Shown here: positions 12,198-62,152 of the stretch, one piece after another
Position numbering within the stretch: position 1 is the stretch's first letter
How the letters are laid out: every line of letters begins with the position of its first letter
IMG/VR virus record: IMGVR_UViG_3300017971_000004
Span: 1 to 64,000 of that record
DNA length: 64,000 nt
Strand: one strand, 5' to 3'
From: a virus
Taxonomy: Duplodnaviria; Heunggongvirae; Uroviricota; Caudoviricetes
Made by a program: the position numbers and the translations under genes
Notes under the pieces: model-generated
Told to the model about the DNA's origin: nothing
What the model saw: the letters and a program-made list of their open reading frames with translations, nothing else
Databases searched by the model: none

Positions 12198-12738
12198 CTG
12201 CTTCCATCCCGAGTAGGCTGCTCCACGGTATAGAATAGCACGACTCTTTTTGGAAAATCTAAGGACGCGACTCCCCCGAGCCAATCCGAGCCAATTCGAT
12301 CCAAGTTGAAAAAACCCTCTGATATACCCACCAACGATATCGAAAATCGAAGAACGAAATACATCGGGTTTGGAAAGACTTCCAAAATTCAACAAGATTT
12401 GCCAAGTTCTAACAACTCGATCCAATCTTGTTGTCTCACGACCATCCTGATCTGTATGAATCCAAGTCTACCAAGGCAAAGAATTCGGCATAGAGTTTCG
12501 AGAATCCTGACCGGAGTGAAGAATTCTGGAGCGTAGCGTAAGAATTCTGAACGTAGGGAAGGATTCGAAGAAACTCCTGCGGAAAACTTCGTTAACAGGT
12601 ACACTTTGGCGGTAATAATTCCGTTGAAGCTTTGAATCTTGGTGCCAGGAATCCCATCGATCCAAGACTTCCGGATGGCGGCGCATCGTATTACGATGTT
12701 ACTGAGGTTAGATCGTTAATATACAGGAACGGATCTTC
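12198..12738. other. 540-bp lower-GC non-coding island with iteron-like repeats
   Basis: Direct repeat CCGAGCCAAT x2 (12278..12297). TCGATCCAA at 12296, 12417 and 12657 (spacing ~120 and ~240 bp). 21-bp tandem AAGAATTCTG(G/A)A(G/A)CGTAG x2 (12519..12560), plus a third GAATTC at 12481. Only short, oddly composed ORFs on either strand. Confidence 0.5.
12714..12727 (-). promoter_or_regulatory. phage promoter-like motif CTGTATATTAAC
   Basis: Member of the recurring minus-strand motif family (see findings); sits at the upstream edge of the non-coding island. Confidence 0.35.
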
Positions 12739-12936
12739 CTACCGATCTTCTTTTTCGAAAAGTTGGATATGCTCGATGGCGAGCTGGATATGTACGGCTA
12801 TCTGGTTCTTGCAGTCCCCGTGAAGGACGCCGTCGAGGGCTTCGTGGAGATGTTTACGAGCTTTCTTCAACAGGTAGGATGGTCGCTCCCCAGTGACATC
12901 GTTCTTGGATCCATTCTTCGACGTATTCGATGACAT
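12739..12936 (-). CDS. hypothetical protein (65 aa)
   Basis: AGAGGAAG RBS 5 nt before ATG 12936. Overlaps 12854..13039 in another frame, so one of the two may be spurious. Confidence 0.3.
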   Translation of the reverse strand: MSSNTSKNGSKNDVTGERPSYLLKKARKHLHEALDGVLHGDCKNQIAVHIQLAIEHIQLFEKEDR

Positions 12937-13039
12937 CTTCCTCTATTAAGGTGCCGTCCTCTGCGAAGCAGCCCTCCGGCACCTCGACCTCCTCGGCGCA
13001 GCCGAACTTGAAATCACCGATCTCGATGTCCATCCACAT
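12854..13039 (-). CDS. hypothetical acidic protein (61 aa)
   Basis: Start moved to the MWMD ATG, directly after the stop of 13041..13460. Conflicts with 12739..12936. Confidence 0.25.
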   Translation of the reverse strand: MWMDIEIGDFKFGCAEEVEVPEGCFAEDGTLIEEDVIEYVEEWIQERCHWGATILPVEESS

Positions 13040-13040
13040 C

Positions 13041-13460
13041 TTAACTTTCTTGCGCCCGTTCACGAGATCCTCCCTTCTTGCCGCCATGTTTGTTCTGGGC
13101 CTGCTTGAGCAGCCAGTCCTCTCTTCTGCGGGCTTCTTCCTCCAGGTCGGCCTGGCAGGCCACGACCTCCCTCCAGAGCTTCAGGGCGGCTGTGACGCCC
13201 TCGTAGCGAAGGGTGTTGTCCGCGTTCGTAGGACCGCCTTCTCTCAGAACGAGAGACAGGCCGTAAGCCAGCTCGGCAGAGATCGTGTCCCGAATCTCGG
13301 TGAAGATGTCCTCTTCGCGGATGCCGGCACCGGAGAAGACCTCGATGATGTCTCGGTAGGTGATCTTGGTCGGGTCGATCTCGTTGGTTTCGGGGTTCTT
13401 GAGATGGTCACGCTCCAGGAAAGCGGAGACGACCTTGACGAGCTTCGATTCGCTGCTCAT
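13041..13460 (-). CDS. hypothetical protein (139 aa)
   Basis: Minus ORF with coding-like composition; no recognizable domain. Confidence 0.45.
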   Translation of the reverse strand: MSSESKLVKVVSAFLERDHLKNPETNEIDPTKITYRDIIEVFSGAGIREEDIFTEIRDTISAELAYGLSLVLREGGPTNADNTLRYEGVTAALKLWREVVACQADLEEEARRREDWLLKQAQNKHGGKKGGSRERAQES

Positions 13461-13465
13461 GCTCC

Positions 13466-13598
13466 CTCACTTCGACAAGTAGACCCCTAAGACGAACATC
13501 CCGAGGAGGATTAGGATGAAGACGAAGAATTCGATGAAGGTGTAGATCTTGCCCCGGATGGTTTCTCCCCTCGGATCGTGTTTGAACTCCAGGGTCAT
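13466..13598 (-). CDS. small membrane peptide (43 aa)
   Basis: MTLEFKHDPRGETIRGKIYTFIEFFVFILILLGMFVLGVYLSK; single TM; ATGA overlap with the upstream gene stop at 13595. Below the track cutoff. Confidence 0.3.
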
Positions 13599-13831
13599 TT
13601 CATTGGGCTCCAGAACCTTTCCTCGACCTCCTCGCCGCACAGATACTTGCAGTAGACGGTGCGCTCCAGCCGCCCTTTGTCGTCCTGCTGAATCATGGCT
13701 CCGCTGAGTTTGCAGACGGCGACGGGCGGGAACTTGGTGTAGGTCTCGACGTGCTCGCAGTCGTAGTCGCAGTAGTCATCGCCGAACTTCCGGCTCGTAG
13801 TGACGGTGGTCTCGATGTTCTTGACGGACAT
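13595..13831 (-). CDS. hypothetical Cys-rich protein (78 aa)
   Basis: Start moved to MSVKN (ATG 13831), which overlaps the stop of 13833..14147. Confidence 0.4.
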   Translation of the reverse strand: MSVKNIETTVTTSRKFGDDYCDYDCEHVETYTKFPPVAVCKLSGAMIQQDDKGRLERTVYCKYLCGEEVEERFWSPMK

Positions 13832-13832
13832 C

Positions 13833-14147
13833 TCACTCCTCCTCGGGCGGCATCGGGTACGGCAGGCTCCAGCGGGCTTTGATGCGCTCTCGCATCGAGC
13901 CATCCGACCAGACGCACGCATCCTTGTTGTTCTTGGCCCTCCGCGCCTTCTGGACACCCCTCTTCTCCACTCCCCGGAACTGGTAGCGGACCGGATAATA
14001 GCCCGGAAGCTCTGGCGGCGCGGTCGTCCATTCGCCGTTGACGAAGTTCTCCCAGGCTTCGAGATCGTCGTCTCCCCGCAGCTGGCAATGATCGCAGATG
14101 TCCTGGCCGTGGTCGCGCAGGACGAATACGTAGAGATTCTTGGGCAT
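13833..14147 (-). CDS. hypothetical protein (104 aa)
   Basis: Minus ORF in a coupled operon. Confidence 0.45.
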   Translation of the reverse strand: MPKNLYVFVLRDHGQDICDHCQLRGDDDLEAWENFVNGEWTTAPPELPGYYPVRYQFRGVEKRGVQKARRAKNNKDACVWSDGSMRERIKARWSLPYPMPPEEE

Positions 14148-14155
14148 GACTCCTC

Positions 14156-14467
14156 CTAGCCTTGCAGAACTATCTTGTCGAGGGTCTCGTGCTGGGAGAA
14201 ACGCTCCTCCAAAGCCTTGAGCCGATTCTCATGCTCTTCCAGGAGGATGCCGACCTCGTTGTTCAGAAGATCGATCTCCTTGCGAAACTTCTCGTTCGAG
14301 GACACCAGCTCCTCGTTGGTCTTGACGAGCTGCTCGTTCGTCTCGATGGCCTTCTTGAGCAACTCGGGCAGCTCGGCGAGTGACTTCGCGCCGGAGGTCG
14401 CCTGCTGAAGCGCCTTGCGGGCCTGCTTCTCCTTGGCCCGGCGCAACTTTCGTTCGGCGCTTCCCAT
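14156..14467 (-). CDS. coiled-coil protein (103 aa)
   Basis: Start moved to MGSAERK (ATG 14467, TGATG overlap with the upstream stop); heptad-rich (LLKKAIETNEQLVKTNEELVSSNEKFRKEIDLLNNEV). Confidence 0.45.
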   Translation of the reverse strand: MGSAERKLRRAKEKQARKALQQATSGAKSLAELPELLKKAIETNEQLVKTNEELVSSNEKFRKEIDLLNNEVGILLEEHENRLKALEERFSQHETLDKIVLQG

Positions 14468-14784
14468 CAGGTCTCCAGCGTCTTGATGCGCTCTTTCAAC
14501 TTCGCGACAAGGTCTTCGATTCGCGGATCCCTGGGTTCGCCGGGTCTCCATCCTTCGAGACCCAGGACCCGACCGATGGAGATGGCCGCGACTTCTTCGT
14601 ACAGTCGAAGTTCGAACAGCTTCTCATGGGTCTCCGTGAGGTCGTCGAAAGTCTTCCGAATATCGTTGATGGCTTGGAGAACGGCCATCTCCAAGGCATC
14701 CAGAACACGCTTCTGCTGAACTTCCAAGGCTTTGAACAAAGGGTCTTCCTCGACATTCACACCCGGACGCAGTTCATCTTCCAT
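14467..14784 (-). CDS. hypothetical protein (105 aa)
   Basis: Start MEDELRPG (ATG 14784), preceded by GAGGAGG RBS and the CTGTATATTAACC motif. Confidence 0.45.
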   Translation of the reverse strand: MEDELRPGVNVEEDPLFKALEVQQKRVLDALEMAVLQAINDIRKTFDDLTETHEKLFELRLYEEVAAISIGRVLGLEGWRPGEPRDPRIEDLVAKLKERIKTLET

Positions 14785-14805
14785 GACGGTCCTCCTCGTA
14801 GATCT

Positions 14806-14819
14806 ATGGTTAATATACA
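14806..14819 (-). promoter_or_regulatory. phage promoter-like motif CTGTATATTAACC
   Basis: 24 nt upstream of ATG 14784; lies between the stop of 14837..15406 and the GAGGAGG RBS. Confidence 0.4.
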
Positions 14820-14836
14820 GAGAAGCCGAGTTGAAC

Positions 14837-15406
14837 TTACATCTTTTCGAAGGGGATGCCCGGAGGAGCATCCACGCGTTCGAAGAGGGGACTCGCCTGG
14901 AAGAAGTTCTGAAGATACTCGGGGGAAACGGTCTCCGGCCTCCAGGCCACCGTGTTGGGAATCTTGCCGTAACCATCGACCTTGCCGGCTCCCGGCAGCG
15001 CGGCGTGGTACATGACGTGAGCCACGTACTCGGAGCAGAAGAGCCGATCGTCCCGATGAACCGGTTCCTTGGATTTGCGTCCGAACAACCGGTAGGCGAT
15101 GAGCTTGAAGAGTCCTCCGAGCAGCCCGAGCCAATCGTATCGTTCTCCGACAAAGTCCTTGGTGGCGCGGAGCGCCGGCCAGATGTCCTCGGAGCACTCG
15201 TAGCACTCCATGTAGCCGACGCGTGTGAGCTTGTCGACGGGGATCTTGTTGACGCCGCGCTCGTTGATCTCGACCGCCCACCAATCGCCCCATTCTTTCG
15301 ACTGGTACAGGACCAACGAATGGTTGATGTTGGACTTCATCGCCCATCTGAGGATCTTCGAGTACAGGGCGTTCGAGGTCGTCACCGCGAAGAGGACTCG
15401 ACTCAT
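14837..15406 (-). CDS. hypothetical protein (189 aa), possible Cys/His peptidase-like
   Basis: Start MSRVLFAV (ATG 15406, ATGA overlap). Contains LFCSEYVAHVMYHA (candidate Cys..His pair); assignment weak. Confidence 0.4.
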   Translation of the reverse strand: MSRVLFAVTTSNALYSKILRWAMKSNINHSLVLYQSKEWGDWWAVEINERGVNKIPVDKLTRVGYMECYECSEDIWPALRATKDFVGERYDWLGLLGGLFKLIAYRLFGRKSKEPVHRDDRLFCSEYVAHVMYHAALPGAGKVDGYGKIPNTVAWRPETVSPEYLQNFFQASPLFERVDAPPGIPFEKM

Positions 15407-16020
15407 GCAGTTTTCTCCAGGAGGGAGATGGCGTAATCGCGTACTTCCAGGCTCGTGGCCCCGTTCAGGTACCCTTGCAAGATGAACCGGTCCGGATTTC
15501 CAGGCTGGTTCTGGTTGGCCCAGAAGCTCACGATGGCCCATGCCCCCTCGGTATCAGGTAGCTCGATGTCCGCCGGGGTGCAGACGAGGCCGTCGCTCTC
15601 GCGGACAACCCGCAGCTTGGCCCCGGCCCCCACGGTCTTGATCTGTCCGCTCAGCCGGCCCCACGCCAGCGTCGGATCGGACACGAAGAAGGAGATGTTC
15701 GTGACCACCCCGCCCGCATCCTCCCATATGTCTGGAGACGTGATCGACTTGGGGCCTTCCAAGATCTTTGAAGAGGCTCGGAACTCAAAAGCAGGGGGAG
15801 GATCTCCTTGATGGTTGGCGACGATGTTGTCAAGAATCCCTATCTCCTCGGTCGAAAGCTCGTCGTCGAACCAGATGTAGCAGCTGTCGCCCCGCGTGAA
15901 GATGTAATCGAACGTCTTGGTGATATTGCTCGATATGATTTCGATCTTGAGTGAATCCGGATTGACTTTCTGATTCGGAAAGTCCTCCGAAATGCTGTAG
16001 AGATACTCCGTTGCTGCCAT
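15403..16020 (-). CDS. hypothetical virion-module protein (205 aa)
   Basis: Directly downstream of the 982-aa fibre gene and coupled to it. Confidence 0.45.
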   Translation of the reverse strand: MAATEYLYSISEDFPNQKVNPDSLKIEIISSNITKTFDYIFTRGDSCYIWFDDELSTEEIGILDNIVANHQGDPPPAFEFRASSKILEGPKSITSPDIWEDAGGVVTNISFFVSDPTLAWGRLSGQIKTVGAGAKLRVVRESDGLVCTPADIELPDTEGAWAIVSFWANQNQPGNPDRFILQGYLNGATSLEVRDYAISLLEKTA

Positions 16021-18968
16021 TACGTCACCTTCATGAGCACTATCCGCTTGGAACGGATGTAGGCGGTCGCCCCTTCGGTGTAGAAGTCGAAATCGAAGTT
16101 GTGGACACCGGCAGACGCAGACGTGAAGAAGAAGACACCACCCATCGTGTCGATTTCTGACGCGATCAGCGCCTCCGGTTCGAAAGCCCCTTCGGCGATG
16201 GTGGTGGTGTCGTCGATCTGGACTCGGACATGCACCCGGTACGACCCGGAGGAGCTAGTGTACTCGCAGTAGTACCAGACCAGATAGGTCGCGACCTCCA
16301 GAGTGGGGGAGTAACGCCACGCCTGGGTCCAGCTGGTGTTGGTCGTGGAGTCAAGCGCCTCTTCGGAGCCTTGCAGCATCGCCGGAACAGCAGAAGGCGT
16401 TCCCCATGAGACGGAGCCGAGGCCGTTCGTGGTCAAGACCTGCCCGGAGCTGCCGTCCGCGTTGGGCAGCGTATAGGCATCGCTGATACGGACGTTTCCG
16501 CCGATGTTGATATAGTTGTTGGAGCCGTGGGCCGTGATGTTGCCCCGCGTCCCCATGATGATGCTGTGGCCATTGTCGAGGCGGTAGTCCCCGCTGACAT
16601 GCATGTCCGCCTCGGAGTAGAGGTCGTCGTTGAAGCGGAACCTCGCGCCTCCCTCGTCCCAATAGAGCCACTTGGTTCGAGTCGTGTCGAAGGAGATGAG
16701 CCTGTTGTTCGTGTGGAAGTCTCCGTCCGGATCGAACTGGCAGAAAGTCCCGGACGGATTACCTATGCGCACCAGACCGGTGCCCTGGACCACGAGATCG
16801 AGATTGGCGTTGTTGTCCGGTGCGAGCGACAGCCGGTTGCCGCCCGCAGTCAGGTACGAGATGGAAGTGACGGCACCCCAGGAGATTCCCTTGTTGGCGT
16901 CCAGGTTGAAGTTCTCCGATGTGTAGACGTCGTCGTTGAACTCGAAGCGGTTATCCGTGGCACTGTCGTAGATGAGCGCGTGCGTCTTGGCGTCGTCGAA
17001 GTAAAGCTCTCCCGTCCACAGCTTCAGATCCTGGGCGATCAGGAGGTCGGCCCCAAAGATTTGAAGCTCGTTGCCACCCACCGTCGAGTACGCCATGCCG
17101 GCTGACTTGGCGGCACCGTTGAAGTAGATGCTCTTGTCGAGTCCGAGCACCATGTTGTCGGAGGCGTCGATCAGGATGCCGGAATCCTGGATCAACTTGC
17201 CGGTGGTCCCGTCGAACCGGACGATGGCGGTGTCGGTAGCCGACGCCGGTCCGACGACGTCCCCGGAACCGCTCCCAGCAGCCCAGGTCACGTTACCCAG
17301 ACCGTCTGTCGTGAGCGTCTGTCCGGAAGAGCCATCCGTAGTCGGCAGTGTGTAGGCTCCGACCGTCAGCGTGCCATTGACCTTCAACTTGGAGTTGAAC
17401 TCGAACTGGGAGTTCAGGCTGCTCCACTGGAGCGTCCTGGTCTTGGCCGTGTCGAAGGTGCTCGGCACGTCCGAGTCGACCTGGAAGCCGCCTGCGGCCT
17501 GGATCGCTCCGTTGGCGAACACTCGGTCGTTGAATTCGAATCTGGTGTTTCCGGCATCGTATTCGAGGGACTTGGTGTTTGTTCCGTAGTCGAACCAGAT
17601 CTTGGAGTCCGCCGCGATGTAGATGTCGTTGACGTCGACGACGATATTACCCCGGGCGACGACCGTGTCCATCAGGTGGATATCGTTGCCACCCCCTGCC
17701 AGCTCGACCTGGCCTGCGGTGGAGTTGTACGAGAGCCCTTTGTCCAGGTCGCTGTCGAGGTAGTAATGGCCATCCGGTGGCACGTACATTGAATCGGACC
17801 ACTCGATGGCCCCGACCGACGAGTTCCAGCGCACCGATTTCGAGACGGTCGGCGTACCGCTTCCAGTCGTATCGAAGTAGAGCCGTTGGTTGGGCGACAA
17901 GAAGAGGTTCTCGACGGTATAGATACCCTTGTTGACGTTCATCAGGCCGGTGAACGGATTGTCCGAGGTGACATCGAAGGTCCCCGATCCGCCATCGGTC
18001 ATGGTCATGTAGCCGCCGAGCTGAGTCTCTCCGAGAACAATCAGATCCTGGGCGGTGTAGACGTTCGCCCCCAGCTCGAACCGGTCGCTCGCGCTGTTCC
18101 AGCGGATCCCTTTGGCGTGCGAAGGACCATCGAAATAGCAGTACTCGTTGGAAGGCACCTGAAGATATGCGCCTGACCCCATGACCGCCAGCATCCCCTT
18201 CGAGGCATCGGCCTCCGCGTAGACGCGGATGTTGGAGGTACCCGGTTCGTAGAGCCCGAAGGAGTCGGCATAGAACTGGATGCCGGCGTTGTCGAAGCTG
18301 GCCAACATGTTTCCGGAGCCGTCCTTGATCCAGGACAAGTCGTCGGCTTGCAAACCTCCCTGGGTATGGACGTTCCGGTCGAAGTTGTAGCGGTTGTCGG
18401 CGTTGTTGTATCCGAAGTAGCGGTCGTAGGTGCCGCTACCTTTGAAACGGATGTGGGTACCGGCGTCGATGTTCTCGACGTAGAGGCTCGCCGTGCCGAA
18501 GTTGACGGAACCGAGCGTCGTGAAGCACAGCTCGTCGGCTCCATCGATCTGGAGATAGCCGCTCGAATTGAAGCGGATGCCGTAGTCCGTACCGGTCGAG
18601 AGATAGAGCCAATGGTTATCACCGAGATGAAGGTTGTTGGAATCGTCGATCCGAACGCCGGATCCCTGAAGGCAGGTTCCCGTCGTGCCGTCGAACCTTG
18701 GAATCGCGTTGTCAAGGGACGTACTTGGACCGAGTACGTCTCCCGCGCCGACTGCGCCGAGATCGGTGATGAGCACCCCGGAATCGTTCTTGAGAGTGAT
18801 GTATCCAGCCGTCAAGGCCGCATCGAGATCGACCGAGGAGAGCAGCTCGCCGAGCATGTACTCCGTCATCAAGTCGTAGTCGACGGTGGGATGGGGGAAC
18901 GACCGCTGTCCCAGGTCGTTCAGGACGACAGGATCGAGGGTGCCCGTAGTGGACAGGTAGAACGACAT
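16020..18968 (-). CDS. large tail fibre protein with internal repeats (982 aa)
   Basis: Repeated module GP(S/A)(T/A)S(L/T)D(N/T)AI(P/V)RFDGTTG..(L/I)Q.SG(V/I).IDD/S.N at ~aa 80 and ~aa 560; long G/N/D/S/T-rich beta-type sequence; C-terminal aromatic-rich presumed receptor-binding domain. Confidence 0.6.
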   Translation of the reverse strand: MSFYLSTTGTLDPVVLNDLGQRSFPHPTVDYDLMTEYMLGELLSSVDLDAALTAGYITLKNDSGVLITDLGAVGAGDVLGPSTSLDNAIPRFDGTTGTCLQGSGVRIDDSNNLHLGDNHWLYLSTGTDYGIRFNSSGYLQIDGADELCFTTLGSVNFGTASLYVENIDAGTHIRFKGSGTYDRYFGYNNADNRYNFDRNVHTQGGLQADDLSWIKDGSGNMLASFDNAGIQFYADSFGLYEPGTSNIRVYAEADASKGMLAVMGSGAYLQVPSNEYCYFDGPSHAKGIRWNSASDRFELGANVYTAQDLIVLGETQLGGYMTMTDGGSGTFDVTSDNPFTGLMNVNKGIYTVENLFLSPNQRLYFDTTGSGTPTVSKSVRWNSSVGAIEWSDSMYVPPDGHYYLDSDLDKGLSYNSTAGQVELAGGGNDIHLMDTVVARGNIVVDVNDIYIAADSKIWFDYGTNTKSLEYDAGNTRFEFNDRVFANGAIQAAGGFQVDSDVPSTFDTAKTRTLQWSSLNSQFEFNSKLKVNGTLTVGAYTLPTTDGSSGQTLTTDGLGNVTWAAGSGSGDVVGPASATDTAIVRFDGTTGKLIQDSGILIDASDNMVLGLDKSIYFNGAAKSAGMAYSTVGGNELQIFGADLLIAQDLKLWTGELYFDDAKTHALIYDSATDNRFEFNDDVYTSENFNLDANKGISWGAVTSISYLTAGGNRLSLAPDNNANLDLVVQGTGLVRIGNPSGTFCQFDPDGDFHTNNRLISFDTTRTKWLYWDEGGARFRFNDDLYSEADMHVSGDYRLDNGHSIIMGTRGNITAHGSNNYINIGGNVRISDAYTLPNADGSSGQVLTTNGLGSVSWGTPSAVPAMLQGSEEALDSTTNTSWTQAWRYSPTLEVATYLVWYYCEYTSSSGSYRVHVRVQIDDTTTIAEGAFEPEALIASEIDTMGGVFFFTSASAGVHNFDFDFYTEGATAYIRSKRIVLMKVT

Positions 18969-18970
18969 CC

Positions 18971-20899: not shown

Positions 20900-20905
20900 C
20901 TCGGC

Positions 20906-21199: not shown

Positions 21200-21260
21200 G
21201 AGTATCCTCCTCGATGAAGGATACTATAGCACTCGACTGTTCGGATTCTTAAAGAGAGTC

Positions 21261-21578: not shown

Positions 21579-21637
21579 TTTGCCCTCCTTGATTCTGTCT
21601 ATATATCAAGAAGGGTGGGTTCTGTCAATATAGAAAG

Positions 21638-22528: not shown

Positions 22529-22577
22529 TGTTCGTACCTCCGTAGAGATTAATCTATCATAACCACTGTCGGAAATC

Positions 22578-22997
22578 TTAATTCGTGGCGCACTCCCCGA
22601 AGCAGCGCTCGCAGAGCAAAATGTTGGGCTCGTCGGAAACCTCGACGGCTCCGCATCTCGGGCAGATGATGACCGGATCGATCATGGCGCGTAGGTTGGT
22701 GATCACACGACCCCGTACCTTGGACGCGGCCAGTACTTTTCGATGCAGCTCCGTCATCGCTTCCAGGGCTTGCGAGAAATAGCTCTCCGTCTTGTCCGAC
22801 CCCTCCTGGATGTACCGGAAGGTCTCGACCGTCCGCGAGGCTGTACGGGCCGTCTGGAGCGCCTCGTGGGCCGTCTGCTCCATCGCGGAGAGACGCCGTC
22901 GAGCATCTTCCAGATCGATCTCCAACTGGGCCGAGTGCTTCTCCTCTTCCTTCAGCCTCTTGACGAGCTGATCCTTGGTCAGGCGGTTCAAGCTCAT
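22578..22997 (-). CDS. coiled-coil protein with C-terminal Cys4 zinc ribbon (139 aa)
   Basis: CPRCG...CERCFGEC. Confidence 0.45.
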   Translation of the reverse strand: MSLNRLTKDQLVKRLKEEEKHSAQLEIDLEDARRRLSAMEQTAHEALQTARTASRTVETFRYIQEGSDKTESYFSQALEAMTELHRKVLAASKVRGRVITNLRAMIDPVIICPRCGAVEVSDEPNILLCERCFGECATN

Positions 22998-23031
22998 GCC
23001 ACACCTCCTACCTTGAAGATACAGGATTGGA

Positions 23032-23385: not shown

Positions 23386-23418
23386 GCTGCATAATGTATC
23401 ACGGCTCCTGTCGGAAAT

Positions 23419-24321
23419 CTAAACTATCGAAGTGCCTCGGACAACGTCTCGTAACTTGTTGATCTTCTTCGTCAGCTCGTTGCGGCGCTCCTGCTCGGCC
23501 TCGATCGTCTTGCGAACTTCCTCCAGCTCGGCTTCGAGCTTGGCCAGTTTGTGTTGCAGAATCTCGGTCAGCTCCTCCTCGTCCTCCATCAGAAACTCGA
23601 CGACAGGGTTGAGGCCGGTGGATCTTGGGCCGGTGGGAGGGGGAGGCGGCGCGGGATGAGGGTCGCGTTTGCCGCCCATTCCCGCAGTCAGCTGCATCTC
23701 CTGGATGCGCGTTTGCAGCACCTTTTCGACATAGGGCGTCAGACGGTGTATGCCAATGTAGTTGGCGACATTATCCAGGGAATCGAAGCCCTCGACAATC
23801 TCCTTGAACTCCTCGTCGGGGACGCTGCCGATGCGATGTCGCACTACTGACTGAAGGTCCGAGTAGTCGAGTCCCAACTCGATGAGACGGTCTCGGAGCA
23901 CGATGGAGTTCTTGCCGCCGAACTTCTCCTGGCCGATGGACTTGAAGACCTGCCGTAGCGAGGTTGCGCCCTTGAGATGCTTTCTCAGCTCCTCGACCGG
24001 AAAAGCCATGATCTTCTCATCGATGGAGCCATCCAGGTTTTTCATCGAGGTTTTCTCCTTCTCTTTGACCAGTTCGGAAATGGGGACCGAGAGACGCGTG
24101 GCGCGGTGACGCCTTGGTGGGGCGGGTTCTTTCTTGAGGTAGGGCAGTTTTAGCCCCAACGATTTTGCTCGTTTTCGGAACTTGCGGACGTTTCCGCTGA
24201 TGGTGGGGACATCCATCCGCGCCAGCGCCATCTCGATGTCGGATGAACTTTTTGCAGCCTCGCAGAAGACCTTGTCCGAGACATCGTTGATGCCCCGTTT
24301 TTTCCTTGGATTTTGCGTCAT
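23419..24321 (-). CDS. hypothetical protein (300 aa)
   Basis: Basic N-terminus, poly-Pro linker, C-terminal coiled coil. Confidence 0.45.
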   Translation of the reverse strand: MTQNPRKKRGINDVSDKVFCEAAKSSSDIEMALARMDVPTISGNVRKFRKRAKSLGLKLPYLKKEPAPPRRHRATRLSVPISELVKEKEKTSMKNLDGSIDEKIMAFPVEELRKHLKGATSLRQVFKSIGQEKFGGKNSIVLRDRLIELGLDYSDLQSVVRHRIGSVPDEEFKEIVEGFDSLDNVANYIGIHRLTPYVEKVLQTRIQEMQLTAGMGGKRDPHPAPPPPPTGPRSTGLNPVVEFLMEDEEELTEILQHKLAKLEAELEEVRKTIEAEQERRNELTKKINKLRDVVRGTSIV

Positions 24322-25001: not shown

Positions 25002-25082
25002 TTAGAACCTCCACATATAGGATCGCATACGCCCCCTCCTTATATCGGAAGAGACGTATGCTGTCAAGTAGATTAAGCTAGG

Positions 25083-25439
25083 TTAGAATAAGGGTGGGCT
25101 CTTAGTATGAACGTGAAAGCCCTCCATGTCGTCCAGATACTGCTGGCTGTACTCGCCGCAGTAGCAGGACCGGCAGAGAACGACCTTCAGGTTCTTGCCG
25201 CTCTTACGGACCCGGATGATGGAACCGGGCTCACCGCAGACAGAGCACTCCGGGGCCTCCAGCCAGTGCTCCAGGCACAGGACGCCCTCGGGAGTCTGCC
25301 GACAGTCGCGCTCGATGCAGCCTTCGATCAGGCAGGGAGCGGGATAGACCGGTTCCTCGAAACGAACCATCCACTCGACGGTCCGCTCGACATCCTCCGG
25401 CAGCCGCAGCGCTGCCTGCTGGTGTCGCATCCGAGGCAT
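25083..25439 (-). CDS. Cys-rich hypothetical protein (118 aa)
   Basis: Multiple CxxC pairs (CSVCG...CRSCYCG). Confidence 0.4.
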   Translation of the reverse strand: MPRMRHQQAALRLPEDVERTVEWMVRFEEPVYPAPCLIEGCIERDCRQTPEGVLCLEHWLEAPECSVCGEPGSIIRVRKSGKNLKVVLCRSCYCGEYSQQYLDDMEGFHVHTKSPPLF

Positions 25440-25574
25440 GTTTCGAAACCCATTGACTTCATGTTACCCAACGAGCTATTTTGTAGCTTCAGTGCCAGCG
25501 AGATGGCTTCAAAATCTCGACTCCCGTACACATTCTCATCAGATACTCATAGTGTCCGAAAGTTCCGAAACGGA

Positions 25575-27034: not shown

Positions 27035-27193
27035 GACTACCTCCAGCGGTTAATGTATCACGAGTTCAGGTGGGATTTCTAAAATCCAACTTCTTGTTCT
27101 TGCGGTGCTGGACCCACTTGCAGACGGCGTAGCCCAGGCCGAACCCGCAGACGAGGAAGGCCAGGTGGGTGACGGCGAACAGGATGAGCCAGA

Positions 27194-27954: not shown

Positions 27955-28029
27955 TGGTGACCCCAGCCGGAATCGAACCGGCGTTCCCAGATCGAAAGTC
28001 TGGTAGCCTAACCGCTAGCTGATGGGGCC
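27955..28029 (-). tRNA. tRNA-Glu (anticodon UUC), CCA encoded
   Basis: Reverse complement GGCCCCA-TC-AGCT-AGCGGTTA-GGCT-A-CCAGA-CTTTCGA-TCTGG-GAAC-GCCGG-TTCGATT-CCGGC-TGGGGTC-A-CCA folds as a canonical cloverleaf (7-bp acceptor with one G-U, canonical T-loop, anticodon loop C-U-UUC-G-A). Confidence 0.7.
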
Positions 28030-28422
28030 AGCTTCTCCTTTCAAGATGTCCTCGACTTCGCAGATGACGATCATCGCTGCGCCCATCCTGGTATCGGCGC
28101 GACTCTTGATACGCTCTTCCAGGTTAGGAGGAAAGCCTTCCACGAGGGCTTCCAACTGCTCGATGATCTCGTGGTAGTTCTTGGACGAAAAACCATACTC
28201 GTCCTTCGCCTGCTGGCTCAGCATGAGGCTCCGCGACTTGTAGTCGAGCCGGCGCAGCCACCCCTTCCTGGTGAGCGCTTTGAGATGGTCGATGACTCCA
28301 TTCGTGGACCGGATGTCGAAGGCTGCACCGATTTCCCGAATGGTGGGGGCCATCTCCTTCTCTCGCATGAACTCCACGATGAAGTCCATGATCGACTTCT
28401 GCCTGTTCGTCAGCCCGATCAT
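28015..28422 (-). CDS. LexA-like winged-HTH repressor, DNA-binding domain only (136 aa)
   Basis: [53 protein letters not shown] mirrors the LexA N-terminal domain (compare E. coli [51 protein letters not shown]). No S24 peptidase Ser/Lys dyad. 3' end overlaps the tRNA by ~15 nt. Confidence 0.55.
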
Positions 28423-46562: not shown

Positions 46563-46595
46563 ACTCTCACATACAGTTCCACGTACTGAACTCTT

Positions 46596-46624
46596 CCTAT
46601 ATCAAAAGGCTCCCTCAGAGTCAA
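46596..46624 (-). promoter_or_regulatory. sigma70-like promoter TTGACT-N17-TATAGG with extended TG
   Basis: Minus strand GGTTGACTCTGAGGGAGCCTTTTGATATAGGAAG; near-duplicate of the 35241..35269 element. Confidence 0.4.
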
Positions 46625-48198: not shown

Positions 48199-48668
48199 TG
48201 ACTCTCCACCTTCCGGGCAGTTGCCACGACGCCCTCCAGATCCTCCAGCCAGCGCGGGCTGAACTGAGAGACGAGGAACCAGTTCTCATCATCTTCAATA
48301 TACAGTTCAGCCACCATCCCCTTCCTACCATCTGGATCGAGAAGACGTTCGGTGAGCCGGATGCCAAAGATGCGCCCGGAGATCGTGATGTGCTTCTTCT
48401 TGAGAGGTAGGTAGCGTTCGGTCTCCCAGTCGTAGATACGCATGTCCGTGAAGATCTTCGGCAGTTCGACCGGAGGGGCCGTACCGCCCTTGAGGTCCCG
48501 GATCTCGTCTTCGAGCATCTCGACCTCGTCCTCCAGCTCCACGATGCGCTGCTGCTCTTCCTCCCGCTCGCACTCCCCGCAGAACCAGCGGTCTTCCTGA
48601 CCCTGGTACATGGAGTTGTCGCCGTGGTTGGTGATCCAGTCGCGCGGACACTTCGGCTTCTCGTTCAT
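48195..48668 (-). CDS. hypothetical protein (157 aa)
   Basis: Minus ORF; N-terminal CPRD...CGEC. Confidence 0.45.
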   Translation of the reverse strand: MNEKPKCPRDWITNHGDNSMYQGQEDRWFCGECEREEEQQRIVELEDEVEMLEDEIRDLKGGTAPPVELPKIFTDMRIYDWETERYLPLKKKHITISGRIFGIRLTERLLDPDGRKGMVAELYIEDDENWFLVSQFSPRWLEDLEGVVATARKVESQ

Positions 48669-53769: not shown

Positions 53770-53770
53770 C

Positions 53771-54778: not shown

Positions 54779-54779
54779 C

Positions 54780-55288: not shown

Positions 55289-55289
55289 C

Positions 55290-55598: not shown

Positions 55599-55599
55599 C

Positions 55600-55833: not shown

Positions 55834-55947
55834 CTCGATCTTCCTCTCAACTATCAGCTGTTATGCGGGGGTCGCATCAACCAGCATCTCGTCCAGATCG
55901 GCCAGGCCCCGTCGGTCATGACGATCTTCGCTCCGGGCTTCTTCTCG

Positions 55948-56166: not shown

Positions 56167-56167
56167 C

Positions 56168-56524: not shown

Positions 56525-56526
56525 CT

Positions 56527-56775: not shown

Positions 56776-56776
56776 C

Positions 56777-57451: not shown

Positions 57452-57466
57452 CTCAGCTCCTCAACT

Positions 57467-58819
57467 TCAATCTTCCGTGAGCGCGGCCTCGACCTCGTCG
57501 AGCCTGAAACGTTGGAGACGGTCAGGACCCAGGTAGTGGACCGGAATGCTTCCTTGGTCCACCCACTTCTGTACCTTCTTCACGGTCGTCGAGAAGTGCT
57601 GTGCGATCGTTTCGATGTCAACAAACTTTCCCGGAGACACCGAAGGCGGAGCTGAAGAAGGTTCGTTCTCCGTCACCTCCTCCTGTTCCGGCTGCGAAGG
57701 AGGTTCAGACGGAACATCGAGGATCCGGATGATGGTTCTCCGATTCCTCCCCTTTCCGTTTTCGATCAACTTCGCGCCTCGCAGCTTTCGGAACACTCCG
57801 GTGACCGTGCTCAGGTGCAAACTCAACGCGGTGCCGAAGTCCGCAGCCCGGGTTGCAACGACATGAGAGGGGGACTTAGCTGCCTCCTTCCAGAGATAAA
57901 GCGCGACCTTGAGCACCGAGTCACCCCGAAGCTCCTGAACACGCTGGAACCACTCCCAAGGGAAGTCCTCGGCCCACTTGAAGTGATCGTCCGACAAAAC
58001 CGGAGGCACCTCCACCTGCTGCTCAGGAAGATCAACTTCTTTCGAGGGCGTCTTCTTTTTCGAAGATGCCTTTTTCGTAGGTACAGACGGTTCCTCGAAG
58101 GGAGCGATCTGGAGGTCCTGATCAGGATCCAACGCCTGCATGCGGATGAGATCCTGAGCCGCCTGGAAGTCGATTGCCACGGTCGACGATCTCCGAGAAG
58201 AGCGTCCGGGAATGTGCAACGACGCCGCGTAGTGCTTGGTATTCTTGAACTTCCCGTGAAAGGTGGGATAAAGAATCTTCACCGCATCCGCGACGTCCTG
58301 TAGAAGATACGGCTTCGCTTCGGGAAGGGTGTTGTCCGGCAGCAACTTGCACTTACTGATCGCCTTCTTCACATCTTCGACCTTGAAGAACGCGGTGGCG
58401 AAGTCAGGATCCAAAGGCCTGTGCCGCTCCCGAAGTCCGCAGTAGAACGCGAGATGGCAGACCATGTCCCGAGTGAGCTTCGTCTCTTGAAGCAGCTCCT
58501 TCAAAGGGAGCCAAGCCGTATCTTTGAGATCCGCGAGCCCGTACTTCTGGAGAACGGCGCTCAGATCTTGCGCCGAGATTTCCTGAACTTCGGGAAGCGT
58601 GTCAGGGGGGTAACCGTCTCCCGTCCCGGGGGGCGCAGCATCAGGCACAGGCGGCGTGACTGCTTCTCCGATCGGCTGCCCTATACCCAACGAAGGAGGA
58701 GCCTGTGCAGGAACAGGAGGGAGTTCCGCTTTCTGCTCCGGGTTATCCTGGGTGTTGTCACTCTCGGGGTTGTTCTGGTCTCGATTCTTTTCATCTTCGG
58801 ACATCTCGTACTCCTCCAT
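57467..58819 (-). CDS. DNA-binding protein with winged-helix and C-terminal excisionase-type HTH (450 aa)
   Basis: C-terminal FVDIETIAQHFSTTVKKVQKWVDQGSIPVHYLGPDRLQRFRLDEVEAAL (HTH_17-like); acidic/Pro-rich low-complexity N-terminus. Lies immediately downstream of the CRISPR array. Confidence 0.5.
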   Translation of the reverse strand: MEEYEMSEDEKNRDQNNPESDNTQDNPEQKAELPPVPAQAPPSLGIGQPIGEAVTPPVPDAAPPGTGDGYPPDTLPEVQEISAQDLSAVLQKYGLADLKDTAWLPLKELLQETKLTRDMVCHLAFYCGLRERHRPLDPDFATAFFKVEDVKKAISKCKLLPDNTLPEAKPYLLQDVADAVKILYPTFHGKFKNTKHYAASLHIPGRSSRRSSTVAIDFQAAQDLIRMQALDPDQDLQIAPFEEPSVPTKKASSKKKTPSKEVDLPEQQVEVPPVLSDDHFKWAEDFPWEWFQRVQELRGDSVLKVALYLWKEAAKSPSHVVATRAADFGTALSLHLSTVTGVFRKLRGAKLIENGKGRNRRTIIRILDVPSEPPSQPEQEEVTENEPSSAPPSVSPGKFVDIETIAQHFSTTVKKVQKWVDQGSIPVHYLGPDRLQRFRLDEVEAALTED

Positions 58820-58917
58820 GTCGTGGCTCGGTTGTTCTCCGTTCTCGACCTCGCGTACCTTCCTTGACCAGAGGAAGGGGAGTAGCTAGTTCCCGCGAAG
58901 TTCTCCTTTTCCACAAA

Positions 58918-58952
58918 CTCTTTCTCAACATACAGTGAACAGATCTCTCGAT
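58918..58952. repeat. left 35-bp inverted repeat flanking the CRISPR array
   Basis: ctctttctcaacatacagtgaacagatctctcgat; 32/35 identical to the reverse complement of 59866..59900. Confidence 0.8.
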
Positions 58953-58967
58953 GTCATGGACCGTGCT

Positions 58968-59730
58968 GTCGAGACTTCTAACCCGTCTCGCAGGGATTGA
59001 AGGATCGAACTCCCAAGATCTGGAGGCCCGCGATGCCGAAGTCGAGACTTCTAACCCGTCTCGCAGGGATTGAAGGGCGGTGCGGGTCCTATCATCGCTA
59101 CTTGGGACATCGGTGTCGAGACTTCTAACCCGTCTCGCAGGGATTGAAGGAAATGGAGTCCATCGAACCCAACATCGTCGAAATGTCGAGACTTCTAACC
59201 CGTCTCGCAGGGATTGAAGGTAACTAGACTGAGAATAGCTTGGTTATGTGAAATGCGTCGAGACTTCTAACCCGTCTCGCAGGGATTGAAGAAACGTGTT
59301 GAAAACGTGCTACGAGCCGGACAACATGTCGAGACTTCTAACCCGTCTCGCAGGGATTGAAGGGAAGCTACCGTCGCCTACGCGACCAGCGAGCCCATCT
59401 GTCGAGACTTCTAACCCGTCTCGCAGGGATTGAAGGATCGATAGCCGGGCGGCGCACGCCTCCGTTGCGCTGTCGAGACTTCTAACCCGTCTCGCAGGGA
59501 TTGAAGGCGGAGCGATCTCGCCGGGCAGTTCGAGCCACAACTCCGGGGGTCGAGACTTCTAACCCGTCTCGCAGGGATTGAAGGCGGTTTTCCGCCTCGG
59601 TACCCGAGGTCGGATCAAGATGTCGAGACTTCTAACCCGTCTCGCAGGGATTGAAGGGAGTGAAAAGATCGACGCCCTCTCGTGATGCTGCTTCGTCGAG
59701 ACTTCTAACCCGTCTCGCAGGGATTGAAGG
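58968..59730 (-). CRISPR. CRISPR array, 11 x 36-bp repeats, 10 spacers (34-41 bp)
   Basis: Plus-strand repeat GTCGAGACTTCTAACCCGTCTCGCAGGGATTGAAGG at 58968, 59041, 59115, 59185, 59257, 59328, 59401, 59472, 59549, 59622, 59695. All are identical except repeat 5, whose last G is A. Repeat contains a 6-bp hairpin CGAGAC/GTCTCG. Strand call is minus because the hairpin then sits at the 3' end of the repeat next to the spacer, and the array is co-directional with the cas12-like gene. Confidence 0.9.
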
Positions 59731-59865
59731 GGCGCGTTCCGCGACTTCAATGATCGCGGCGAGATAACCACCCGATTTCGAGCGGTCCGTTTTTCGCTCG
59801 AACGCGCTCCCGATTTTTTCAATCATTTCGAACGATGAACTCCTCCACCGATCCACCGCTCGAAA

Positions 59866-59900
59866 ATCGAGAGATCTGTTCACTGCATGTTGTCAAAGAG
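59866..59900. repeat. right 35-bp inverted repeat flanking the CRISPR array
   Basis: atcgagagatctgttcactgcatgttgtcaaagag; ends 11 nt before the cas12-like stop codon. Confidence 0.8.
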
Positions 59901-59911
59901 CTTTCGAACTT

Positions 59912-62110
59912 CTAAGACTCTAGAGGAGCCGGGCCTTCGCCGTTCCGCTCCTCTTCTTCCTTTTTCCGCTTCCGAACGACTTTCTTCCCCTTGTTCCGGT
60001 TCTTCTGAGCGTCCGACATCTCCCGCACGAGCACGCTGCCATCGGCTATCTTGACGATCTTGTTCTCTCGGTACAGCCGCATCATGTTCCGGGCCGCGTT
60101 CGCGTCCTGGTCCCAGGTGCGACCGCACTTCTCGCAGGTGTGCTCCACCTTCGGAATCGGGTCCCAGGGCGCATCGTGCCCGCAGTCGAAGCAGCGCTGG
60201 GTGGTCATGGCCGGGTTCACCCAGACGACCGTGCCGCCACGCGAGAGGAACGCCTGGATGAGCGTCTCGCGGAACTCGGAGAGCGCCGCTTCTTTCTGCT
60301 GCCGCCGCGCCCGCCGGATCTCGACCTTGTCGCTTCCCGGAAGCTCATGCTTCTGCATCTTGCTCAGATCGATATTTTCGAGCACGAGGACCTTGAACTC
60401 CCGCGCCAGCGCAGAGTCCACGCACCGGTAGTGATCCTCGCGCTGCAACAGCGACTTGCGCCGCTGGCTCTCCTGCCACTGCCAGAGGTGCCGGTCGCCG
60501 CCTTCGAGACGCCGCGCCTCCTCGTCGTAGACGCCTCGCTGCCAGCGGTCCAGGATCTCGAAGCCCCGTTCGTCCCCCTTCCACCGCGACTCCCTCCAGA
60601 GCCGCAGCAGCCACGCGAACCGCTTGGGGGCCTCCCACTTGGCGATGCCCCGGGTCGACTCCCTGAACCACTTCGGCAGCGCGCTGCGCCGCGCCTTGAT
60701 CCACGCCCGAAGCTCGGCCAGCATTTCGTTCTGCTTCAGCTGCCGGGTCTGCTGGAGCGTTTCGACGCGCTGGAACCCGGCGACCACCTTCGACGACATG
60801 CACTGCTCGTGGCCCACCTCACCCTCGTCCGGGTTCTTAAGATAGGCGGCGTACTCTCGATCATCGATCAGGTACGCGATCCGGATTCGGGGCACCTCCA
60901 CCTCCTGCTTCCGCAGCCCCCGCTTCTTCCGCTTCCTACCCATCTCCACCGTCTCGGTCCCTCGCTTGCGCCAACCGATATCGACGGCCACGACCCCGCG
61001 CCCCGTCCCGTAGTCCTTGTGACAATCCCCCGAATCCACCTCCAGATGGAGGTGCAACGTCCACCGGAGCCGGGTGGTGATCTTCTCCCGCTTCACGACC
61101 GCCCACTTGATGCGCGCCTTCGGAGGCAGCGGACGATGCATGATCACTGGGAACTCCGCCCAGATGGGATCACGACCGCTCTTTCCGCCGCTGCCGACCC
61201 GGATTCGAGCGATGCCGCGTCGACGTATCCTCCGATGCCGGAGCACCTCCTCCCCCATCTCGGGCTCCATGTCCAGCTGGAACATGGTGTTCTGGCAGTT
61301 CAGGACGCGCTCGACGGAATCCCCCTTCTGGAGTTCGACGCCGAAGATCACCTCATCATCGAGACTCTTGAACTTGGGGTCTCGCTCGACCCAGATGCCC
61401 TTCTCCTCGTTCCACTTCCAGAGGCTGTCCCTCAGCGACATCCGAGAAGCCTCCCGCGCCCTGTTCACCAGGAGATAGGTCCCCCAGTAGAGCTTCCCCA
61501 GCTCCTCGTCCGTCTCGGTCACCTTCTCGTAGGTTCCATCCTTGAATTGCACGTAGGCTTCGTGCAACTCCTGCTTCTCCCGCTGCTGGGCTTCCGCGCG
61601 CCGAGCCTTCAACTCGTCGCTTAACTCCACCTTCTTCCTCGGCTCCTCCTTCCCCGGCTCGTCGTCCGACTCGGAACCGTTCTTCAACTCCCGCAGCTTT
61701 GCCCACGCCTCGTTCTTGAGATCGCGCACCTCCCGGAGACGCATCCGCTCCTGCGGGGTGTCGGACCGGGATCGAGACCTCTTGCGCTTCGTCCTGAGAT
61801 CCTCCTGCATCTCCCGGAGGAGCTTTTCGAGACGCTTGACCTCGGTGAAGGCTTCCCGCATCTCGTCGCTCGCCCCCATCAGGTCCAGAGTGTGCTGCTG
61901 GTAGATTTCCCGAAGAGTCGCCCGCAGACGACGCTCCGCCTCCACACACTGGTTGTTGTACCGCTGCGACAGGACGATCTGCTTCTCCACCAGTTCGGCG
62001 TTCTTCGTCGGACCGAACGGCAGCCCATACACATAGGCGAGCTGGGGACCTCGGACCCTCGGCTTGCCCGGCTTCTTCTTCCGTTTCGTCTTCGATGTCT
62101 TGCGCGTCAT
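59912..62110 (-). CDS. cas12: Cas12-family (TnpB-derived) type V CRISPR effector candidate (732 aa)
   Basis: RuvC-I GVVAVDIGWRKRG; RuvC-II VLVLENIDLSKMQK; Zn ribbon CFDCGHDAPW...HTCEKCGRT followed by RuvC-III WDQDANAARNMM (compare ISDra2 TnpB AGVDVGI / IGTEHLKPDNM / CHDCG...CPNCGETHDRDENAALNI). N-terminal TnpB-like segment QLAYVYGLPFGPTKNAELVEKQIVLSQRYNNQC. A K/R/E-rich coiled-coil insertion of ~300 aa gives Cas12 size. Directly abuts the CRISPR array. GGGAGA RBS plus the CTTGTATATTAAC motif upstream. Confidence 0.75.
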   Translation of the reverse strand: MTRKTSKTKRKKKPGKPRVRGPQLAYVYGLPFGPTKNAELVEKQIVLSQRYNNQCVEAERRLRATLREIYQQHTLDLMGASDEMREAFTEVKRLEKLLREMQEDLRTKRKRSRSRSDTPQERMRLREVRDLKNEAWAKLRELKNGSESDDEPGKEEPRKKVELSDELKARRAEAQQREKQELHEAYVQFKDGTYEKVTETDEELGKLYWGTYLLVNRAREASRMSLRDSLWKWNEEKGIWVERDPKFKSLDDEVIFGVELQKGDSVERVLNCQNTMFQLDMEPEMGEEVLRHRRIRRRGIARIRVGSGGKSGRDPIWAEFPVIMHRPLPPKARIKWAVVKREKITTRLRWTLHLHLEVDSGDCHKDYGTGRGVVAVDIGWRKRGTETVEMGRKRKKRGLRKQEVEVPRIRIAYLIDDREYAAYLKNPDEGEVGHEQCMSSKVVAGFQRVETLQQTRQLKQNEMLAELRAWIKARRSALPKWFRESTRGIAKWEAPKRFAWLLRLWRESRWKGDERGFEILDRWQRGVYDEEARRLEGGDRHLWQWQESQRRKSLLQREDHYRCVDSALAREFKVLVLENIDLSKMQKHELPGSDKVEIRRARRQQKEAALSEFRETLIQAFLSRGGTVVWVNPAMTTQRCFDCGHDAPWDPIPKVEHTCEKCGRTWDQDANAARNMMRLYRENKIVKIADGSVLVREMSDAQKNRNKGKKVVRKRKKEEEERNGEGPAPLES

Positions 62111-62137
62111 CTCAATCTCCCATAGCTCGCATCCTCA

Positions 62138-62152
62138 GTTAATATACAAGAA
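62138..62152 (-). promoter_or_regulatory. phage promoter-like motif CTTGTATATTAAC upstream of the cas12-like gene
   Basis: 27 nt upstream of ATG 62110, in the 80-bp intergenic gap. Confidence 0.4.

Follow-up and report, generated by a model that had tools for sequence, protein, structure and literature searches.

A −10-like word with no −35 box as a probable promoter class in a large uncultured phage with a cas12-like gene and in its relatives

The 64,000-nucleotide stretch of phage DNA analysed here (the window; positions 1 to 64,000 of IMG/VR virus record IMGVR_UViG_3300017971_000004, Caudoviricetes) has a GC content of ~59% and carries almost all of its genes on the minus strand. Because proteins identical to those encoded in the window are found on a 188,555-bp contig, we take the window to be part of a ~188-kb uncultured phage genome. 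Recognisable genes include the TerL gene (8315-10567), tail-fibre and baseplate-like genes, a UvrD-like helicase gene, thyX (36841-37491, with a Thy1 domain), a gene for a 135-aa protein with a LexA DNA-binding domain (28015-28422; LexA_DNA_bind, E=1.3e-22), and a cas12-like gene (59912-62110; 732 aa, with a Cas12f1-like TNB domain) that adjoins a CRISPR array of 11 repeats. A sequence-only reading of the window had described a recurrent 12-nt promoter-like motif upstream of many of the minus-strand genes, the cas12-like gene among them. We find that this motif is a 13-base word, tTCT(G/T)GTATATT(A/G), which we call class B and which probably constitutes a −35-independent promoter with TATATT as its −10 hexamer.

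Among INPHARED phages there was no megablast match for 20 kb of the window, and the nearest named virus, Rctr197k (from a DAMO enrichment culture), has a TerL identity of 38%. TerL searches led to a clade of related phages (identities from 87% down to about 50%, contigs of 158-212 kb, 32-62% GC) whose TerL belongs to Pfam MJ0330_N, a family named after a Methanocaldococcus protein; the only host hints are TerL relatives binned with a Kiritimatiellae metagenome-assembled genome (MAG; 58%) and a Desulfatiglandales MAG (49%). The DNA used for comparison consisted of the TerL neighbourhoods of these relatives (designated by L numbers below) and, for two of them, the thyX region. A vault-like 916-aa protein used as the query in IMG/VR retrieved no relatives, a tail-fibre-like 982-aa protein likewise served poorly as a marker, and an exact look-up of a 903-aa protein, meant to extend the left end, gave no record.

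To avoid circularity, we trained a 15-nt position weight matrix (PWM) exclusively on 21 sites from relatives, picked solely by their GTATATT core, and then scanned it over the window. The core, GTATATT(A/G), follows a pyrimidine block, tTCTK, and the whole word can be written as tTCT[G/T]GTATATTA. Counted from the core, T−4 and C−3 are each conserved at 17 of the 21 training sites, position −2 is a pyrimidine at all 21, the base directly before the G is not A, and an A follows the core in 13. The five near-identical sites listed in the sequence-only reading are all there on the minus strand, displaced by no more than a few bases from where it had placed them. Its consensus, (C/G)TG(T/A)TA(T/C)ATTAAC, was out of register, having 13 positions where the examples had 12 nt, and a literal search for TGWTAYATTAA matches only the three sites it had called variants, which belong to a different class (see below). 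It had also overlooked sites at 11658 (6 nt from an ATG), 7518 and 23022, the last two of which read GTATCTT. The TG that it took to be a conserved feature before the hexamer does not hold up either, since the base preceding the invariant G varies (position −14 in hexamer numbering is G in 11, T in 6 and C in 4 of the 21 sites); what is conserved is the TTCT further upstream.

No conserved −35-type block is found in the 21 sites from relatives, where offsets −45 to −9 carry at most 0.7 bit per position and mostly less than 0.3. A candidate UP element or activator box, 'TCGAAAAAGA', lies ~22 nt upstream of three window sites (14818, 12724 and 29573); we rejected it as not general, because the copy at 14818 encodes the conserved C-terminus (PFEK and stop) of the upstream gene and because the relatives are nearly information-free upstream of −20.

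The word is confined to one strand and to the gaps between genes. At a threshold of at least 14 bits the PWM has seven matches in the window, every one of them in the sense orientation and intergenic (intergenic DNA makes up 8.1% of the window), with none antisense, whereas dinucleotide shuffles of the window have on average 0.31 and never more than 3 matches even at 12 bits or more. Of exact cores inside reading frames the sequence-only reading had noticed only one clear copy, at about 48296; that copy is there, and so is a second, at 34413-34407, both of them probably non-functional. In an unbiased ranking of 7-mers by intergenic enrichment, with the CRISPR array masked, the top words are TATATTA, TGATATA, GTATATT and ATATTAA, whose reverse complements are rare or absent. 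The relaxed pattern [TG]GTATNT[TG] for the core occurs 15 times in the window, always on the coding strand (15/15) and mostly between genes (11/15). Across 282 kb of non-redundant clade DNA with a GC content of roughly 45% or more, GTATATT is found 37 times in sense and 2 times in antisense, and no other permutation of its letters, of which there are 105 in all, is found as often (the runner-up 19 times, the median permutation 5 times). These permutation and strand controls exclude chance or AT-rich intergenic composition as the source of the word. At the Rfam gathering threshold the whole window yields two tRNAs only and no match for the word.

A core reading CTGTAT, present in 5 of 9 class B sites in the window, had reminded the sequence-only reading of an SOS-box half-site, and the phage does encode a protein with a LexA DNA-binding domain, for which the word might serve as operator. 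We reject this idea as scarcely credible. The similarity is to the CTGT of the E. coli half-site, and orthologous sites have CGGT, TCGT, TTGT or TGGT at this position; none of 29 sites has an ACAG or ATAC dyad partner at a fixed distance; and the element is asymmetric and strand-specific, unlike the operators of dimeric LexA. The protein itself covers only residues 1-75 of the LexA model, that is, the DNA-binding domain only, and scores 69.6 bits against a family cut-off of 110.95.

Comparison of orthologous gaps revealed how narrowly the conservation is focused. In the 21-nt gap that precedes a 266-aa gene, the first of the TerL operon, alignment of 8 genomes (34-62% GC) leaves as invariant columns GTATATT and an ATG exactly 6 nt later, and nothing else; no Shine-Dalgarno (SD) sequence precedes this ATG in any of the 8 genomes. 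With the hexamer at −12 to −7, an ATG 6 nt further on puts the A of the start codon at +1, which is the geometry of a leaderless mRNA. A second footprint is seen at the site at 14811..14823, where alignment of 5 orthologous gaps after a 189-aa gene leaves GTATATTA as the invariant block. The word is also conserved before thyX in L036, at the head of a gene-free region, and before a 55-aa gene, in which gap the orthologs of L003, L004 and L006 carry TCGTATATTGAG or CTGTATATTACG. At 7 window sites and 21 sites of relatives the hexamer is TATATT (T−12, A−11, T−7), and variant sites alter only hexamer position −9 (TATCTT, TATGTT), with TATGGT in L017 in addition; position −9 is one of the three middle positions of a −10 hexamer, the least conserved ones. 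In L036, CTCTCTGTATATTGA lies exactly 17 nt after TTGACT, at a place where the window ortholog has TTGACT-N17-TATAGG, and just past the right end of the window the same genome (L001) has TTGACA-N15-TATATT. These hybrids, of which there are only two, indicate that TATATT occupies the −10 slot of a sigma-70-type promoter when a −35 box is present.

Taken together, the restriction to sense-strand intergenic DNA, the conserved orthologous gaps, the 6-nt spacing to an ATG with no SD sequence (in 8 genomes) and the occupancy of the −10 slot argue for a −10-like promoter element distinct from the TTGACW/TGATATAAG class, as the sequence-only reading had proposed. TATATT would be the −10 hexamer read by a sigma-70-family RNA polymerase (RNAP) holoenzyme, and the invariant G−13 together with TTCT (about −18 to −15) may act as a non-canonical 'extended −10', giving contacts that normally come from the −35 box. 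The reader of the word could be the host primary sigma alone, or the host sigma after a phage factor has disabled −35 recognition or remodelled it. Transcription is predicted to start ~7 nt past the hexamer, which would give 5′ untranslated regions (UTRs) of 0-24 nt: for most genes a 5′ UTR of 11-24 nt that carries a GGAGG ribosome site and, for the 266-aa gene heading the terminase operon, a leaderless mRNA beginning at the A of its ATG. The predicted starts fall at about 62134, 37506, 29560, 14805, 12711, 11645 (that A) and 7505 on the minus strand. At least seven operons would start at class B words, namely those of the cas12-like gene, of thyX and a deoxyribosyltransferase gene (nucleotide metabolism), of the LexA-domain gene, of two sets of genes in the virion region, of the terminase, and of the gene-free region. 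The word upstream of the cas12-like gene would drive that gene and probably the CRISPR array behind it too.

Several observations weigh against this promoter assignment. The canonical TGn register (T−15, G−14) is found in only about one third of sites, which are TGGTATATT-type, so the compensating contact is hypothetical. The predicted +1 is enriched for A (13 of 19 sites) and is a purine in 16 of 19, but a purine there is not a discriminating promoter signature, because the whole region from −4 to +3 is purine-rich. Two relatives, L017 and L027 (TerL 64% identical), have no exact word near TerL, only a TTGTATGGTA variant. AT-rich relatives (32-41% GC) show no strand bias for the bare word, and conservation in these genomes therefore rests on single orthologous sites; more generally, many sites are orthologous, and the number of independent events is thus smaller than the number of sites. 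The genes behind class B and the two other promoter-like classes described below show no obvious functional or temporal partition, so that no temporal assignment is possible. Finally, the promoter assignment and the start sites are predictions from sequence. The family name of TerL had also raised the idea of an archaeal TATA box, which we rejected in view of five sigma-70-type TTGACW-N17-18 sites, a distance from word to ATG as short as 6 nt, and the LexA and UvrD-type genes.

A word that is strictly sense and intergenic and lies just upstream of SD sequences might instead act in RNA, as a cleavage or binding site (GUAUAUUA) for an endoribonuclease or an RNA-binding regulator, of host or phage, that processes polycistronic transcripts upstream of their ribosome sites, much as RNase E (RN↓WUU) or T4 RegB does. 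The AUAUU of the core matches the preference of RNase E, the genes run densely in one orientation, and intrinsic terminators show no enrichment (11, with 14.6 expected). Even so, we judge an RNA-level role very improbable: the canonical 17-nt spacing from TTGACT in a relative and the exact 6-nt gap to a leaderless-type ATG are promoter geometry, variation is limited to position −9 of the −10 hexamer, the plainly bipartite classes A and C (below) fill equivalent gaps and seldom occur together with class B, and a 13-nt, DNA-type conservation that includes the TTCT block exceeds that of known RNase sites.

If the word is a promoter, its reader might be a sigma-like factor that the phage encodes for the purpose, on the lines of phiEco32 gp36 or T4 gp55, and the word would then form a phage-autonomous middle or late class that the host primary sigma ignores. 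A single-element design devoid of −35 information would suit such a factor, as would a conserved G−13/TTCT block that differs from the canonical extended −10 and the retention of the word across relatives of 34-62% GC, which probably have different hosts. The promoters of phiEco32 gp36 (tAATGTAtA, with starts 6-8 bp downstream) share the single-element design and a TGTAT core (PMC8948821). We nonetheless consider a dedicated sigma unlikely. Pfam, NCBIfam and PDB sequence searches with the window proteins gave no sigma or RNAP domain, nor did the L001 gene table, a search that covered 64 of ~188 kb, and the helix-turn-helix proteins of the window, considered as cryptic sigma factors, were not supported as such by PDB or NCBIfam. 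As a −10 for a primary sigma the hexamer is close to consensus, and its position 17 nt past TTGACT in one relative implies that it is compatible with a sigma containing region 4; the −10-slot hybrids argue that a region-4-containing primary sigma can use it. With no −35 box and an unusual upstream block, there is still room for a phage factor. We entertain, tentatively and as a possibility that we would not bet on, that the 13-nt word is the target of a clade-conserved phage-encoded specificity factor (sigma-like, or one that remodels or appropriates sigma) and that it drives the cas12/CRISPR locus and the leaderless terminase operon through the non-canonical G−13/TTCT contact in a largely host-independent transcription programme. 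Such a programme would serve this group of uncultured phages of ~160-210 kb and 32-62% GC.

Class B would be one of three interleaved promoter classes, with A and C (Table 1). Class C is bipartite and has a −35-like box: TTTAGAA/TTAAGA and TCCnAA are followed, after 8-9 nt, by TGnTAnAnT (TTTAGAAnTCCnAA…TGnTAnAnT). In the window the strict pattern matches 5 times and a relaxed one 7 times; all copies are sense and intergenic, the strict pattern has no antisense match, and the class is conserved in L003-L006, L008, L017, L027, L036 and L037. The variants GTGATACATTAAC and ATGATAGATTAAT that the sequence-only reading had reported at 27045, 23391 and 22545 are real sites of this class, wrongly grouped with the main motif, and the second block 'AGATTTCCGACAG' that it noticed before variants belongs to the class as well, with its −35-like box (TTTAGA/TTAAGA + TCCnA). 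Its statement that there is no conserved −35 accordingly holds for the GTATATT class only. Overall the sequence-only interpretation is partly supported, being right in outline (a −10-like element with no −35) and wrong in its register, in merging two classes and in the SOS resemblance. Class A, TTGACW-N17-18-TAKANN (mostly TATAAG or TATAGG, usually after TGA), has 5 copies in the window, all sense. A generic scan for sigma-70 two-hexamer promoters found 5 sites where 5.6 were expected, no more than chance; the only plausible ones among them were two members of class C, and no class B site was picked up. Between about 6 and 47 kb, most unambiguous gaps of at least 30 nt hold just one site of class A, B or C; two gaps hold two sites, and some hold none (for example 5405-5444 and 25431-25574).

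Table 1. Promoter-like sites of classes A, B and C and related copies in the window. Scores are those of the class B PWM; cores are the GTATATT coordinates of the five sites already listed in the sequence-only reading.
Class	Sequence	Position	Strand	Score (bits)	Core	Distance to ATG (nt)	Context
B	TTCTTGTATATTA	62140..62152	−	23.8	62147-62141	30	intergenic; before cas12-like gene
B	CTCCTGTATATTG	37512..37524	−	17.7	37519-37513	21	before thyX; L036 orthologous gap has CTTCCGGTATATTAC
B	TCTCGGTATATTA	29566..29578	−	18.3	29573-29567	24	before 204-aa gene, first in operon with LexA-domain gene
B	TCTCTGTATATTA	14811..14823	−	18.6	14818-14812	27	before 105-aa gene (14467-14784)
B	TTCCTGTATATTA	12717..12729	−	22.2	12724-12718		heads conserved gene-free region; kept in L003-L006 and L029
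B	GTCTGGTATATTA + 6 nt + ATG (11645-11643)	11643..11663	−	22.4		6	266-aa gene, first in TerL operon
B, variant	TTCTTGTATCTTG	7511..7523	−	16.7		17	before 55-aa gene (7327-7494)
B, weak variant	ATCCTGTATCTTC	23015..23027	−	9.9		18	before gene 22578-22997; L003 ortholog TTCCTGTATCTTC
B, degenerate	TCACTGTATGTTG	58926..58938	−	8.1			within arm of CRISPR-flanking inverted repeat
B core only	exact GTATATT, no upstream TTCT block	48297..48303	−	<8			within a reading frame; probably non-functional
B core only	exact GTATATT, weak context	34407..34413	−	10.2			coding; probably non-functional
C	TTTAGAAATCCCACC…TGATACATT	27052..27083	−				first variant of the sequence-only reading; conserved in L036 and L037
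C	TTTAGATTTCCGACAG…TGATACATT	23393..23423	−				second variant of that reading
C	TTAAGATTTCCGACAG…TGATAGATT	22551..22581	−				third variant of that reading; L003 ortholog at 838
C	TTTAAGAATCCGAACAG…TGCTATAGT	21223..21253	−				upstream of tail-fibre cluster
C-like	TTAGATTTTCCAAAAAG…TGCTATTCTATAC	12228..12262	−				upstream of gene 11667-12197
C	TTTAGAAAAGCCAAAA…TGATATACT	8268..8298	−				downstream of TerL; orthologs in L003, L004 and L006
C-like	TTTATAAACGAGCAA…TGAAGTATACT	6479..6510	−				orthologs in L003 and L004
A	TTGACT-N17-TATAGG	46596..46624	−				sigma-70-type; L036 ortholog has class B word in −10 slot
A	TTGACA-N18-TAGACA	40758..40787	−				upstream of tRNA-Cys
A	TTGACT-N17-TATAAG	35241..35269	−
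A	TTGACA-N17-TATAAG	25039..25067	−
A	TTGACA-N17-TATATA	21600..21628	−

The degenerate motif copy that the sequence-only reading placed before 46562 reads TGTATGTGAG (46566-46575), lies downstream of a TTGACT-type promoter and recurs at 35221-35230; at both places it forms a conserved element 10-25 nt downstream of a class A promoter. Class A promoters of L036 (595-661 and 9858-9930) and L037 (1347-1420) are followed by AGAGTCTGG…ATGTGAGG. The element downstream of class A promoters may be an operator or a 5′ UTR element. In a further class C-like site, TTTAGATCCGACC…TGTACAATG (37866-37898), the −10-like TACAAT overlaps the ATG at which gene 37533-37868 is called to begin; the gene may in fact start further downstream.

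The gene-free region headed by a class B word (12198-12853; 400-600 nt) is conserved in position in all close relatives and lies directly upstream of a 176-aa gene (11667-12197), which in turn comes before the terminase operon. The class B word opens the region and a class C site closes it; ~30 nt after the word lies a conserved palindrome, ATCGTAATACGAT (12685-12697), and CAGAATTCTT-like words are repeated within the region. As a protein, the product of a 72-aa open reading frame (ORF) that follows the 12724 site is not conserved (5-82 aa among relatives), and Rfam gave no match in 12198-12853. The region could be a non-coding RNA, a packaging (pac/cos) region or a set of iterons.

Around the CRISPR array (58968-59721) we noted a 38-nt inverted repeat, 89% complementary, whose arms (58915-58952 and 59866-59903) bracket the 11 repeats. 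Each arm holds a degenerate promoter-like word that faces outward from the array; the sequence-only reading had mentioned such copies, and they do exist, one on the minus strand (Table 1) and the other, GCATGTT, on the plus strand of the other arm. Solitary hairpins resembling the CRISPR repeat also occur in intergenic gaps, at 25495-25521 (minus strand) in the window, at 6945 in L004 and at 1766, 11907 and 18020 in L036. The window hairpin reads GTCGAGATTTTGAAGCCATCTCGCTGG and the array repeat GTCGAGACTTCTAACCCGTCTCGCAGG, and the changes in the stem are compensatory (GAGAT/ATCTC, GAGCT/AGCTC). These hairpins are on the gene-sense strand, opposite to the array repeats as written on the plus strand, and could be regulatory crRNA-like or anti-CRISPR-like units.

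The right end of the window can be extended by only ~2 kb, to the contig end. The same phage is present in the Logan assembly as SRR6963591_19578 (L001/L002), a contig of 60,342 bp in which the interval from cas12 to the next gene is ~380 nt as against ~1,100 nt in the window, with at least one strict-pattern repeat match in the array region; the CRISPR array is probably collapsed or shorter in that assembly. At the left end, a minus-strand gene seems to start near 2675 and to run off the window (1-2692), and the long plus-strand ORFs in this interval have low GC content at third codon positions, like shadow ORFs. The 916-aa protein (30586-33336) has Major Vault Protein shoulder and repeat domains (E=3e-26) and is conserved in L036 and L037. 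'Serglycin' Pfam matches in a scan of concatenated proteins were ignored as an artefact of the GS linkers.

Class B is a real, conserved promoter-type signal and a fairly ordinary one that changes no concept; phage promoters that are class-specific and independent of a −35 box are well documented, as are leaderless mRNAs in phages. Its value lies in providing a three-class promoter map for a large clade of uncultured phages without any cultured relative, in pinpointing the likely promoter of a phage-borne cas12-like gene, and in flagging a conserved leaderless-type start for a terminase operon. The word is short, sharp and conserved enough to be used for annotating operons in related metagenomic contigs, and it should also be useful for finding the factor that reads it.

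Among known promoter systems, class B resembles the extended −10 promoters of sigma-70 (TGnTATAAT), which are used selectively by phages that block −35 recognition (T4 AsiA, Thermus phage P23-45 gp39). Both are independent of a −35 box, have a near-consensus −10 and an extra conserved block just upstream, and would allow temporal switching by the disabling of sigma region 4. Whereas extended −10 promoters have T−15 and G−14, the invariant base in class B is G−13, accompanied by TTCT at about −18 to −15, and, unlike in T4 and P23-45, no AsiA- or gp39-like protein has been identified. T4 late promoters (TATAAATA), which use gp55, gp33 and gp45, are likewise −10-only; their sequence is different, and the window showed no homologue of gp55 or gp33. 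In phiEco32, the middle and late promoters that rely on gp36 have, like class B, one conserved element with no −35 box upstream of phage operons. There an identified phage sigma, one that lacks region 4, reads the element (PMC8948821), whereas none is seen in the present window; the two sequences differ outside TGTAT, and the host of phiEco32 is an enterobacterium.

The late promoters of the Thermus phage Lalka27a have a −10 element, TAGGGT, with no −35 box; 5′ ends map 6 nt downstream, the transcripts are mostly leaderless, the promoters are dense in collinear gene clusters, and there is no phage sigma (bioRxiv 10.64898/2026.04.20.719267). Like class B, the late promoters of Lalka27a (and phiYS40) thus consist of a class-specific −10-type hexamer with no −35, densely placed in collinear clusters that lack terminators. 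Lalka27a and the present phage are also alike in their leaderless transcripts (predicted in our case), in combining a LexA-like regulator with a type V cas12 gene and its CRISPR array, and in having no recognisable sigma or RNAP gene (here, in the 64-kb window). The two phages are unrelated, and Lalka27a is much smaller (a Lalka-like prophage interval is ~73 kb). Their elements differ, TAGGGT with a conserved C at −25 contrasting with TATATT, G−13 and TTCT. The 5′ ends of Lalka27a were mapped by sRNA-seq, whereas the starts given here are predicted from the DNA alone, and most genes of the present phage would have SD-containing leaders, with one conserved leaderless-type case, where Lalka27a transcripts are mostly leaderless.

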